DNA of 64,000 bases, taken from the NCBI RefSeq assembly GCF_965641715.1, contig NZ_OZ282453.1, one strand, 5' to 3'. The position numbers were made by a program. The first letter of the stretch is position 1; each line of letters begins with the position of its first letter. Positions 6,001 through 9,000 of this stretch are shown one piece after another. The DNA is from Escherichia coli. GTDB taxonomy: Bacteria > Pseudomonadota > Gammaproteobacteria > Enterobacterales > Enterobacteriaceae.

Positions 6001-9000
6001 GATGTTTGTGATTGAAGGATTGTTGGCAGTCGGCGCTGGGGTATTCACATTCTTTTGGCTTGATGACACACCGGAGCAGGCACGTTTTCTGAGTAAACAA
6101 GAAAAAACGTTGCTTATCAATCAACTGGCAAGTGAAGAACAACAGAAAGTGACTTCTCGGCTGAGCGATGCGCTGCGTAATGGGCGAGTCTGGCAACTGG
6201 CGATTATCTACCTGACCATTCAGGTGGCGGTTTACGGATTAATTTTCTTCCTGCCGACCCAGGTTGCGGCATTGCTGGGAACAAAAGTGGGCTTTACAGC
6301 GTCGGTGGTCACCGCCATTCCGTGGGTTGCGGCCTTGTTTGGGACCTGGCTTATTCCGCGCTATTCCGATAAAACCGGCGAACGGCGTAATGTCGCAGCG
6401 CTGACATTACTGGCGGCGGGCATTGGTATTGGTCTGTCCGGGCTGCTTTCTCCAGTACTGGCGATCGTAGCGCTGTGTGTTGCAGCCATCGGGTTTATTG
6501 CCGTGCAGCCGGTGTTCTGGACGATGCCGACACAACTGCTTTCCGGTACGGCGCTGGCTGCGGGGATTGGTTTTGTAAACCTGTTTGGTGCAGTGGGCGG
6601 GTTTATTGCCCCGATCCTGCGCGTGAAAGCAGAAACGTTATTTTCCAGCGATGTGGCGGGATTACTGACGCTGGCAGCGGTGGCGGTCATCGGTTCGCTG
6701 ATTATTTTCACTCTGCGTGTAAATCGTACTGTTGCGCAGACCGACGTGGCACATCATTAAATAGGTTAAGGAACACGATGAACGCATTATTAACCAATCC
6801 CTTTAAAGAACGTTTATGCAAGGGCGAAGTGCAAATTGGTCTGTGGTTAAGCTCAACAACTGCCTATATGGCAGAAATTGCCGCCACTTCCGGTTATGAC
6901 TGGTTGCTGATTGATGGGGAGCACGCGCCAAACACCATTCAGGATCTTTATCACCAGCTACAGGCGGTAGCGCCCTATGCCAGCCAACCCGTGATCCGTC
7001 CGGTGGATGGCAGTAAGTCGCTGATTAAACAAGTCCTGGATATTGGCGCGCAAACTCTACTGATCCCGATGGTCGATACTGCCGATCAGGCACGTCAGGT
7101 GGTGTCTGCCACGCGCTATCCTCCCTACGGTGAGCGTGGAGTCGGGGCCAGTGTGGCACGGGCTGCGCGCTGGGGACGCATTGAGAATTACATGGCGCAA
7201 GTCAACGATTCGCTTTGTCTGTTAGTGCAGGTGGAAAGTAAAACGGCACTGGATAACCTGGACGAGATCCTCGACGTCGAAAGGATTGATGGCGTGTTTA
7301 TTGGACCTGCGGATCTTTCTGCGTCGTTGGGCTACCCGGATAACGCCGGGCACCCGGAAGTGCAGCGAATTATTGAAACCAGCATTCGGCGGATCCGTGC
7401 TGCGGGTAAAGCGGCTGGTTTTCTGGCTGTGGCTCCTGATATGGCGCAGCAATGCCTGGCGTGGGGAGCGAACTTTGTCGCTGTTGGCGTTGACACGATG
7501 CTCTACAGCGATGCCCTGGATCAACGACTGGCGATGTTTAAATCAGGCAAAAATGGGCCACGCATAAAAGGTAGTTATTGATATCAAAGGCCCATGGGGA
7601 TCGGCTGTGGGCCAGTGTTAATTAGTGGTTATTCGCTGCCAGATCGGCTTCGCTTAGCTGGGTGGCTGCGAGCACCAGGTCACGATCAAAGCCCTGCTCC
7701 AGCATGCGCAAAGCAATTTTAATGGCTTGTTCATGCATACCTTCCTGCCAGCCAATTTGGTGTCCTTCCTGCCGTAGCCGTTCAGCAATAGTCATTAATC
7801 TCTCCTTTTGTAGTGGTGAACGTTCGGCAATCTCCTCAATAAAACGGGTGAAACGGGAGGTATCGCCGCATTGCAGCAGATAATTAAACAGCGTTTGTAG
7901 CTGGCTGTCATTAGTGAAGCCTCTAACCAAAAGCGTGGTGATCCTGTCGACCATACCGATTAAATCGCGGTCGCGAATATGCTTTTGAATCAGTTCCAGC
8001 AGAGCTATACGCCGATGTTGCATGATCTCATCGTCAGGTACGATGGTTATATCCACCAACGGAAAAGCTTCGGTGTACAACTGCCGGGCAAGTTGCGGAT
8101 CGTCAAACTCATCCAGCCAGTTGAGTGAGTACGGGTAGGGCGAGGTTTCGCCATGATAAAACAGCAACGGCACCACCAGCGGGACTCTGTCATAGCCTTT
8201 GTCCAGGTGACGCTGCATGGCGGCAGTGGCATAGCGCATTAGCCGAAAAGCCATATTCTTTTCTGCAGAGCTTTGATGTTCAATCACGCAGTAGATATAG
8301 CCGTCACCGTCGCTGGTTTCCACGGACCACAAAACATCCGAGTAGTAAGCGCGTAAACTTTTTTCAATAAAACTGGTGGGTTCCAGGCGTAAGGTTTGCA
8401 GGTTGCAAAGCTTGCGCAGCGGCTCTGGTAGATGTATTTCGAGAAAATCCCGTGCGGTTTCGGGTGTGAACATAAAGGTTTTAAACACCGCATCATGCGG
8501 GGAGGAGGTTGTTGATTCGGTCATGGTTGTCCGTCACCTGATATTTATGATGACGCGACATTACGGTTATCCCAGGCCTTTGACATCTGCCAGTTTCAGC
8601 CTTTGCGAGACGTTTTCAGAGGAATTTTCACTGCGTTGCAACGCATACATTGGGCACGGAATCGTGTACGCAAAAATGCCCGGTAACCACATGCTTACCG
8701 GGCATCAGAAAGGAGTTTAAGCCAGCGCCTGGGCCAGTAGCGTAATCGGATGTTCGCAGCGAAGACTTGTGGACATCTCAATCTGCCATTTACAGGTTTC
8801 GCAGTCGGTGACCACCAGATCTGCGCCGCTTTCTTCTATCTGGCGGAACAGTGGTGCGCCGATGGCTTGTGAGGTGGGGTAGTTCTCTTTTTTGAAACCG
8901 TAAGTACCCGCAATACCGCAGCACTGGGAATCCAGCACTGTTAACTCAAGCCCCGGGATGTTACGCAACAGCTCCAGGGTGTAGAGCGTCCAGCCCATTT

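Follow-up and report, generated by a model that had tools for sequence, protein, structure and literature searches.

RpnE-S, a small protein initiated inside rpnE of Escherichia coli: conservation of its start signal and its probable relation to RpnE-L

Results

The rpnE gene and its internal start

The DNA analysed here (the window) is a stretch of 64,000 nucleotides of contig NZ_OZ282453.1 from Escherichia coli. Reading of the reverse complement together with the ORF list places a Shine-Dalgarno (SD)-ATG site inside a minus-strand ORF of 300 aa, which is flanked by the glpC ORF (8717..9982, minus strand) and the yfaU (rhmA) ORF (ending at 7581, plus strand); the features are listed in Table 1. 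In a synteny comparison, the order glpC-rpnE-yfaU is the same as around b2244 rpnE in MG1655 and in other genomes. NCBIfam NF007418, the equivalog model applied by PGAP at this locus, gives the full-length protein (RpnE-L) 706 bits against a cutoff of 583, while the RpnA model of NCBIfam gives 428 bits, under its own cutoff of 583. By its position and its NF007418 score the gene is the rpnE (YfaD) orthologue, not RpnB (YfcI). The preliminary description had called it "yfaD/rpnB", of which yfaD is right and rpnB is to be replaced, as RpnE is YfaD and RpnB is YfcI (Kingston 2017). The identical full-length protein is present in NCBI as an E. coli "ISNCY family transposase".

Table 1. Features at the rpnE locus, in window coordinates
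Feature	Position	Strand	Basis
rpnE (yfaD) full-length ORF = RpnE-L, PD-(D/E)XK-type Rpn nuclease-family protein	7622..8524	-	ORF, synteny, NF007418
Transposase_31 / YhgA-like nuclease domain, residues 8-209	7898..8503	-	Pfam PF04754, E = 7e-88
Candidate internal sigma-70 promoter, ATGACA (7911..7906), 17 nt, TTTAAT (7888..7883)	7883..7911	-	conservation of hexamers and synonymous sites
Shine-Dalgarno AAGGAG of the internal start = Lys240-Glu241 codons of RpnE-L	7807..7802	-	sequence read
Internal initiation codon ATG = Met244 of RpnE-L, Met1 of RpnE-S; in frame	7795..7793	-	sequence read
rpnE-S CDS, 57 aa + stop, predicted three-helix protein = C-terminal tail of RpnE-L	7622..7795	-	ORF, homology, model
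Hypervariable four-residue repeat region HQIG-WQEG, S residues 12-19, two units in the window allele	7739..7762	-	allele comparison
G+C-rich hairpin between convergent rpnE and yfaU stops; possible shared terminator	7589..7613	.	terminator-like site, 9-bp stem, 6 G-C pairs

In rpnE sense, the site reads cca cta caa AAG GAG aga tta ATG act att gct gaa, with the 6-nt spacer agatta (7801..7796, minus strand) between AAGGAG and ATG, and both proteins end at the same stop codon (7624..7622, minus strand). The AAGGAG, the 6-nt spacing, the in-frame ATG and the 57-aa C-terminal product were all described correctly, to the base, in the preliminary description. The pattern AAGGAG-N5-9-ATG occurs 3 times on both strands of the window, with about 0.9 occurrences expected under a second-order Markov model. 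At the other two, the remaining ORF measures 429 and 419 aa, as do the annotated yfaV and glpB genes, so all perfect SD-ATG sites in the window are protein starts. Downstream of the gene, the hairpin is weak evidence of a terminator shared by rpnE and yfaU, about one such site being given by shuffled sequence as well.

Conservation of the start signal

We aligned 77 intact homologues and used codons elsewhere in the same genes for comparison. The ATG is kept at the aligned position in all 77. The Lys codon of the SD is AAG in 39 of 39 homologues (background 35%), and the Glu codon is GAG in 54 of 65 (background 40%). Where the residues change from KE to EE, GE, GD, QE or RE, the GGAG/GAGG core is still retained, and the SD-to-ATG spacing is fixed at 5-7 nt. 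The mean anti-SD duplex energy is -8.5 kcal/mol at the site, compared with -1.9 kcal/mol at 794 other internal Met codons and -4.7 kcal/mol after synonymous resampling. Gene by gene, the synonymous resampling is weak (median rank 0.14; 1 of 77 genes under the 5% level), so the SD signal is strong in aggregate only, and the homologues in which it is counted are phylogenetically related.

It is conceivable that AAGGAG-ATG is a by-product of encoding Lys-Glu-Arg-Leu-Met and that the window allele has no separate initiation, as the motif lies entirely within the codons of a conserved peptide and synonymous resampling of one gene at a time falls short of significance. We consider this very improbable. 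The codon bias and the survival of the SD core through amino-acid changes both speak against it, and so does ypaA, a stand-alone copy found in other strains. In K-12-type loci, AAGGAGagattaATG lies right after the TAA stop of rpnE and heads this copy; its AAGGAG-N6-ATG is that found inside rpnE, yet no Lys-Glu codons constrain it there. Moreover, the K-12 allele, which in the alignment does not differ from the window between SD and ATG, has published initiation peaks and a tagged product. From the codon bias, the anti-SD energies and the ypaA copy, the aligned sequences indicate that the start signal is conserved beyond coding demand. Conservation of AAGGAG and ATG past what the amino acids require had been named beforehand as a point on which the proposal could fail, and the 77-homologue alignment did not refute it. 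In an earlier study, yfaD was also listed among genes with enhanced synonymous-site conservation at an internal start (Meydan 2019, bioRxiv 10.1101/520783).

The least credible alternative is that the internal SD serves chiefly to pause ribosomes or to regulate translation of the long protein and not as a start site. A slowing of elongating ribosomes by SD-like stretches within genes has been suggested, and is contested, but a pause would leave unexplained the invariant ATG at a fixed spacing, the stand-alone ypaA, the crystallised RpnA-S product and the published initiation-specific profiling.

Candidate promoter of a short transcript

The candidate sigma-70 promoter lies about 87 nt upstream of the internal ATG. 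Its ATGACA and TTTAAT are both exact in 32 homologues, whose proteins are down to 61% identical, and the synonymous sites within it are fixed (N205 is AAT in 32 of 32, D206 is GAC in 32 of 33 and F213 is TTT in 32 of 32), while the flanking codons vary among the homologues. A strict sigma-70 consensus scan inside rpnE gave no promoter; ATGACA-17-TTTAAT was picked by a relaxed reading by eye, and its support is conservation only. Transcription start sites from dRNA-seq have been stated to lie inside every rpn gene, with no coordinates given (Zhong 2023, PMC10400941). One trait of the RpnS antitoxins described there is a distinct short transcript of higher abundance that comes from an intragenic promoter. 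On the aligned codons, the promoter of the short transcript appears to be embedded in fixed synonymous codons in Escherichia, Citrobacter, Salmonella and Klebsiella paralogues.

Fold and repeats of RpnE-S

RpnE-S matches RpnA-S (7th0) end to end in phmmer (E = 4.4e-4). The AF2 model of the RpnE-S monomer (pLDDT 79.9) has helices at 3-33, 38-45 and 49-55, and its top Foldseek match is 7TH0 (probability 1.00, TM 0.63/0.77, E = 0.011), with all remaining matches at E > 1. RpnE-S is thus predicted by the model to have a compact three-helix fold with a long first helix, as in the RpnA-S crystal structure 7TH0. Several other matches were set aside. A PDB profile search with an alignment also returned 7th0, but this is partly circular because the 7th0 sequence is included in that alignment. 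Matches to designed pentatricopeptide or helical-repeat PDB entries were rejected, as no single stretch passed the threshold and the composition is that of generic helical hairpins, and a designed-repeat match from the phmmer PDB search was rejected as being of the same kind. In the Pfam search on the tail, DUF4351/PF14261 was not matched, and a RepB_primase_C match (E = 8) was dismissed as meaningless. DUF4351/PF14261 is not a defining feature, since the label holds only "in some species" (Zhong 2023, PMC10400941).

A four-residue repeat of RpnS, the number of which sets RpnS specificity, has been described (Zhong 2023, PMC10400941). At this point, the alleles compared (KTa005, YpaA and other Escherichia) carry 2 to 10 units; for example, the KTa005 allele has 8 extra units and a long protein of 332 aa. 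Among the homologues, S lengths range from 42 to 85 aa, mostly in 4-residue steps, and 61 of 77 fall on the series 53+4n. Several marks of an RpnS intragenic antitoxin are found at the window locus: the start is in frame, preceded by an SD, in the 3' part of an rpn gene and homologous to RpnA Met244, and the repeats, located 8-20 residues past the initiating Met in RpnS, are HQIG-WQEG here.

The nuclease domain of RpnE-L

In addition to the Pfam domain, TIGR01784 matches RpnE-L with 174.5 bits (cutoff 52.1). Comparison of the translation with the RpnA mutants of Kingston 2017 finds D11, D63, E82, Q84, R94 and P163-D-D165-E intact, and the catalytic residues (D63, E82, Q84; also D11 and R94) sit at RpnA numbering. 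All 77 homologues keep D63 and E-H-Q-S unchanged. By domain and residues, RpnE-L falls in the Rpn / YhgA-like nuclease family. No PADLOC 2023 model fits RpnE-L or RpnE-S; the database may be older than the studies on Rpn.

The long forms of RpnA-D and of RpnP2 have been published as DNA endonucleases or as toxic. When K-12 RpnE was overexpressed, recombination was not increased, recA cells were not killed and SOS was not induced (Kingston 2017), and the MG1655 RefSeq label is "inactive recombination-promoting nuclease-like protein". The constructs of this "inactive" RpnE also expressed RpnE-S, as a point from Zhong 2023 (PMC10400941) makes clear, and the negative K-12 assays are therefore ambiguous.

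Single-copy and two-copy loci

The window locus has one S copy, without a downstream ypaA. The two-copy junction (rpnE + ypaA) is found in 3132 of 5426 complete genomes, which makes about 58% of E. coli genomes two-copy and about 42% single-copy. The exact S allele of the window, at >=99% identity, is found in only 1 of the 5426. K-12 MG1655, with RpnE-L/RpnE-S and YpaA (RpnE-Ss; b2244, b4543), has the same glpC-rpnE-yfaU locus; the SD-spacer-ATG, the next codons and the first 36 S residues of its RpnE are identical to those of the window, and the nuclease domain is nearly so. The S tail of the window is of the YpaA/outgroup type, while the tail type of K-12 RpnE-S is FEREIVLATTQLTDADIPNCH, and the window has two repeat units where YpaA has three.

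In E. albertii, E. whittamii and the cryptic Escherichia clades the locus has a single copy, mostly with the window-type DRDL tail, so the single-copy form is probably ancestral. A deletion fusing rpnE with ypaA, which would also give a YpaA-like tail, is less likely than a retained ancestral single copy. Among 80 homologous loci, 4 have a broken L with an intact S module; "toxin lost, antitoxin kept" is a suggestive reading of these loci but was rejected, as the part of the gene specific to L makes up about 79% of it and all four lesions would lie in that part by chance with a probability of about 0.38.

Discussion

The site described here is an already known one, namely the published internal start of RpnE-S, which belongs to an "antitoxin within a toxin" family. 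Each of the five rpn genes was reported to have Ribo-RET peaks at an in-frame internal start (Meydan 2019, bioRxiv 10.1101/520783), and for MG1655 Onc112/retapamulin signal was reported together with SPA-tagged RpnE-S and YpaA (Zhong 2023, PNAS, PMC10400941). The proposal of an internally initiated small protein is hence confirmed by a published start and a tagged product, both for the K-12 allele. For RpnE, what has been published is the synthesis of the small protein only, from the K-12 allele and not from the single-copy allele of the window.

The family record goes further. RpnS neutralises RpnL nucleases for RpnA, RpnB, RpnC and RpnP2, blocking RpnL toxicity, SOS induction and DNA cleavage, and an RBS + ATG mutant of RpnA (K240R+E241D+M244L) abolished RpnA-S (Zhong 2023, PMC10400941). 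The suggestion that the C-terminal fragment is an auto-inhibitor consequently stands for the family (RpnA, B, C and P2), and extends to RpnE itself by way of these paralogues. Taken as a whole, the best explanation of the site, and one we hold to be very probably correct, is that the internal start of rpnE yields RpnE-S and that RpnE-S restrains RpnE-L. We infer the antitoxin action from the paralogues; the position of the internal promoter is likewise deduced. In this mechanism, rpnE encodes two same-frame proteins, RpnE-L of 300 aa and RpnE-S of 57 aa from Met244, the latter most likely translated from a shorter transcript beginning inside rpnE. By analogy with RpnA, RpnB, RpnC and RpnP2, the long first helix of RpnE-S, which bears the variable number of repeats, would pair with its counterpart in RpnE-L, and this pairing would keep the RpnE-L nuclease inactive. 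The outcome would be a toxin-antitoxin pair in which one gene is nested in the other, with a connection to phage defence.

The alternative of most weight is that RpnE-S is made, yet is no antitoxin for RpnE-L, which would be a dead or non-toxic paralogue; RpnE-S would then be a relic or serve a different purpose, for instance as a buffer against incoming or related Rpn toxins. None of 3 overexpression assays showed activity of K-12 RpnE, and it is annotated accordingly, but the co-expressed RpnE-S weakens this point, and RpnE-L retains all the residues that matter in RpnA, invariant among homologues. The extra stand-alone S copy in 58% of E. coli genomes hints at a demand for S beyond one-to-one, while a general cross-buffering is at odds with the finding that RpnA-S and RpnB-S are effective on their cognate L only (Zhong 2023, PMC10400941). 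The loci with broken L and intact S point the same way as a dead RpnE-L, but the 4 cases are not significant. We regard this alternative as unlikely.

Restraint of RpnE-L by RpnE-S could be taken further. RpnE-L may be a live toxin, its K-12 inactivity coming from co-expressed RpnE-S; the single-copy allele would then be restrained only by its matched S, and variation in copies and repeats would tune a strain-specific phage-defence switch. This extension is offered tentatively, as possible but more than the evidence leads us to expect.

A close characterised system is RpnA-L/RpnA-S (yhgA, PDB 7TH0). It has an internal start at the homologous Met244, RpnA-S Met1 aligning with RpnE-S Met1, an 11-residue N-terminus identical to that of RpnE-S, a three-helix fold with a long first helix, and the same PF04754 nuclease domain and catalytic residues. 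RpnA is a paralogue of RpnE and not an orthologue, as the RpnA model score shows, and RpnA-S is 8 residues shorter than the window RpnE-S, without two repeat units. Toxicity, antitoxin action and in vitro nuclease inhibition have been demonstrated for RpnA; in RpnE the toxin and antitoxin activities are putative. Like Rpn, classical type II toxin-antitoxin systems have a protein antitoxin that binds and neutralises a protein toxin, a higher expression of the antitoxin and a link to phage defence. In Rpn, however, the antitoxin is the toxin's own C-terminal domain, made in frame from inside the toxin ORF with no separate gene, and specificity is set by repeat number. Cas11d of the Synechocystis type I-D CRISPR system, translated from within cas10d (cited in Zhong 2023), is likewise small and arises by in-frame internal initiation in the 3' part of a larger defence gene, but Cas11d works together with the long product, while RpnS acts against RpnL, and the two are not homologous.

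In summary, the observation in the preliminary description is real and its interpretation is correct. For the published Rpn toxin-antitoxin story there is nothing new in it, and what it adds otherwise is modest: the gene name is corrected, codon usage independently confirms that the start signal is under selection, the internal promoter has a candidate position, and the window allele is the single-copy form with two repeat units. Nested genes are regularly overlooked; the small product is absent from the annotation of every RefSeq record examined, and the long protein is still an "ISNCY family transposase". At this locus, a sequence-only reader was able to recover a real nested gene.

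The internal translation start of rpnE

Inside rpnE, the Shine-Dalgarno (SD) sequence AAGGAG, at the Lys240-Glu241 codons, is separated by 6 nt (agatta) from an in-frame ATG, from which a 57-aa C-terminal product, RpnE-S, would be read. The preliminary description had given this motif, spacing, frame and peptide length, and the minus-strand reading and ORF listing agree with it to the base. A scan of both strands across the 64-kb window found AAGGAG-N5-9-ATG at three sites, against about 0.9 expected. The remaining two leave ORFs of 429 and 419 aa, as long as yfaV and glpB are in the annotation, and therefore every perfect SD-ATG in the window marks a protein start. 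The longest ORF at yfaV opens at GTG 5432, 13 codons before the yfaV start.

Features of the window with their positions
Feature	Position	Strand	Remark
rpnE ORF	8524..7622	-	300 aa; ORF listing
AAGGAG (SD)	7807..7802	-	inside rpnE; minus-strand reading
Internal ATG	7795..7793	-	codon 244, in frame; minus-strand reading
rpnE stop codon	7624..7622	-	ends S reading frame; minus-strand reading
Candidate promoter, ATGACA	7911..7906	-	sequence conservation
Candidate promoter, TTTAAT	7888..7883	-	17 nt after ATGACA; ~87 nt upstream of internal ATG
glpC ORF	8717..9982	-	flanks rpnE
yfaU/rhmA ORF	ends 7581	+	flanks rpnE
AAGGAG-N5-9-ATG at yfaV start	5459..5473	+	pattern scan
AAGGAG-N5-9-ATG at glpB start	11176..11161	-	pattern scan
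G+C-rich hairpin	7589..7613		9-bp stem, between convergent rpnE and yfaU stop codons
MicF sRNA	46941..47034	-	full-length Rfam match, 116.8 bits
Rfam naRNA4 (CssrE)	20050..20113 (+), 43090..43280 (+), 55068..55376 (-)		six matches, five within two tandem clusters

The hairpin could serve as a terminator for both genes, but one such site is about the number expected in shuffled sequence. The MicF match indicates that the window reaches the ompC/micF region, and the naRNA4 matches may represent REP/BIME-type repeat arrays.

Meydan et al. (bioRxiv 10.1101/520783) mapped Ribo-RET peaks to internal, in-frame starts in each of the five rpn genes; in their account the rpnE internal product is 98% identical to YpaA, the stand-alone S copy of K-12-type loci, and yfaD is among the genes whose synonymous sites show raised conservation where the internal start lies. 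Zhong et al. (PNAS 2023, PMC10400941) found Onc112 and retapamulin signal at rpn internal starts, dRNA-seq transcription start sites within every rpn gene, and SPA-tagged small products from all five, including RpnE-S and YpaA (RpnE-Ss), and RpnA-S was lost in a K240R+E241D+M244L mutant. These two studies bear out the proposal of an internally initiated C-terminal small protein in an Rpn nuclease, and it is very likely that one is made from this site in rpnE.

Gene identity and the long protein

The gene had been labeled yfaD/rpnB; yfaD stands, while rpnB is wrong because the gene is rpnE by locus, RefSeq name and Kingston et al. Its MG1655 counterpart is b2244 ("inactive recombination-promoting nuclease-like protein RpnE"), followed by pseudogene ypaA. 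The region is matched in 5421 of 5426 complete E. coli genomes, chromosomal in every case, and the identical 300-aa sequence is an E. coli protein in NCBI on 81 contigs. The long product, RpnE-L, matches Pfam PF04754 across residues 8–209 (E = 7e-88) and scores 706 bits against NCBIfam equivalog NF007418 (cutoff 583), but under the cutoff of the RpnA model. As judged from the translation, its nuclease core is intact, with D11, D63, E82, Q84, R94 and the PDDE motif kept; mutating the equivalent residues altered RpnA activity (Kingston 2017).

RefSeq/PGAP names the product "ISNCY family transposase", both in the window and at three RefSeq loci (L001, L002, L083). In the RefSeq records examined, the internal small protein has no CDS of its own, and ypaA is a pseudogene in the MG1655 listing, although tagged YpaA protein was detected (Zhong 2023). 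The missing annotation and the pseudogene label reflect a gap in annotation rather than a finding about biology.

Selection on the start signal and a candidate promoter

We compared 80 homologous loci, each species represented by a single genome (48–95% identity), from Escherichia, Citrobacter, Salmonella, Klebsiella, Serratia, Pantoea and Pectobacterium to Vibrio and Paludibacterium, and codon-aligned the 77 intact genes. The start signal had been expected to be conserved beyond amino-acid demand. ATG stands at the aligned position in all 77 (one codon upstream in 3), Lys four positions upstream is AAG in 39 of 39 cases (35% elsewhere in these genes) and the following Glu is GAG in 54 of 65 (40% elsewhere), counts that are not independent events because the homologues share kinship. 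The GGAG/GAGG core persists when the residues differ (EE, GE, GD, QE, RE, GGE). The mean energy predicted for pairing to the 3' end of 16S rRNA is -8.5 kcal/mol at the internal start, -1.9 kcal/mol at 794 other internal Met codons (0.4% reach the internal-start median) and -4.7 kcal/mol when the same peptides are resampled synonymously; gene by gene, the resampling test is weak, with a median rank of 0.14. K-12-type loci repeat the segment AAGGAGagattaATGACT... right after the rpnE TAA stop, where it heads ypaA and is under no Lys-Glu codon constraint. This natural control points the same way, to a start signal beyond coding need.

A strict promoter scan inside rpnE found nothing. ATGACA and TTTAAT are both exact in 32 homologues, with protein identity down to 61%, and are not kept in more distant ones. 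Codons within them are fixed (N205 AAT 32/32, D206 GAC 32/33, F213 TTT 32/32); at nearby Leu, Tyr, Gln and Gly residues codon choice is free. From this conservation we infer a putative internal promoter, ATGACA-17-TTTAAT.

Predicted fold and repeats of RpnE-S

RpnE-S aligns end to end with the 49-residue chain of PDB 7TH0 (E = 4.4e-4), titled "Recombination-promoting nuclease RpnA", which is RpnA-S and a dimer (PMC10400941). The first 11 residues are identical, and the sole gap is HQIGWQEG of RpnE-S, two four-residue repeat units. An AF2 model from 35 S sequences (pLDDT 79.9) has helices at 3–33, 38–45 and 49–55; in Foldseek against PDB, 7TH0 is its only meaningful match (probability 1.00, TM 0.77 on target, E = 0.011), every other having E > 1. 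Matches of the RpnS alignment profile to designed pentatricopeptide and other helical-repeat proteins had high summed scores and no single significant stretch; their consensus is G-K-x-E-E-A-L-x-I-A-x-x-M-L-x-x-G-I-D, and we treated them as a helical-hairpin composition artefact.

Homologue S forms are 42–85 aa long, and a 53+4n series fits 61 of 77. E. coli alleles also vary by whole repeat units; for example, KTa005 has eight extra and a 332-aa long form. Repeat number determines RpnS specificity (PMC10400941).

Allele and copy number

The window lacks ypaA. The N-terminal part of its S form has two repeat units, the same as K-12 RpnE-S, while the tail is of YpaA type, unlike the K-12 RpnE-S type (…FEREIVLATTQLTDADIPNCH). 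Of 5426 complete genomes, 3132 contain the whole of a two-copy-junction query; most others match it over just 32–38 nt around the SD-ATG and are therefore read as single-copy. A single copy is also found in E. albertii, E. whittamii and two cryptic Escherichia clades, and the DRDL motif of the window tail is common to three of these four relatives (ARDL in E. whittamii). Since these relatives are single-copy, mostly with DRDL-type tails, the single-copy form looks ancestral. Less likely, the window allele arose instead from a two-copy locus, the downstream Ss copy being losable via deletion or fusion (PMC10400941). Just one of the 5426 complete genomes carries the window's exact S-region allele as a single match of at least 99% identity. 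The locus of E. coli SCPM-O-B-8794 (L007:2206-2436) has a mosaic S tail, its first half similar to K-12 RpnE-S and its last part to the tail of YpaA and the window, suggestive of recombination between the two types.

Probable restraint of RpnE-L by RpnE-S

RpnS blocks RpnL growth inhibition and SOS induction for RpnA, RpnB, RpnP2 and RpnC, and DNA cleavage in vitro for RpnA; plasmid-borne RpnP2 protects against phage (PMC10400941). The suggested auto-inhibitor role is thus shown for these four, and would extend to RpnE, whose nuclease core is intact by sequence, by analogy with its paralogues. Kingston 2017 saw no raised recombination, no killing and no SOS response with K-12 RpnE. Those constructs also expressed the S form, a confound raised for RpnA and RpnB by Zhong et al. 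(PMC10400941), in whose main text we found tests of neither RpnE-L toxicity nor RpnE-S antitoxin activity. On balance, RpnE-S probably restrains RpnE-L.

The long ORF is broken in 4 of 80 homologous loci: E. whittamii (L006; in-frame stop at about codon 185), C. amalonaticus S646 (L039; in-frame stop at about codon 73), C. youngae ATCC 29220 (L072; tandem duplication with frameshift) and C. youngae CCUG 30791 (L062; 5' truncation). The S ORF and promoter-like hexamers are intact in all four, a pattern resembling toxin-first decay of a toxin-antitoxin pair, though one that would arise by chance with a probability of about 0.38.

The feature is real, and its reading from raw sequence is correct save the paralogue name. 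The rpnE internal start is not new, since rpn internal starts and RpnS were described in 2019 (Meydan et al.) and 2023 (Zhong et al.).
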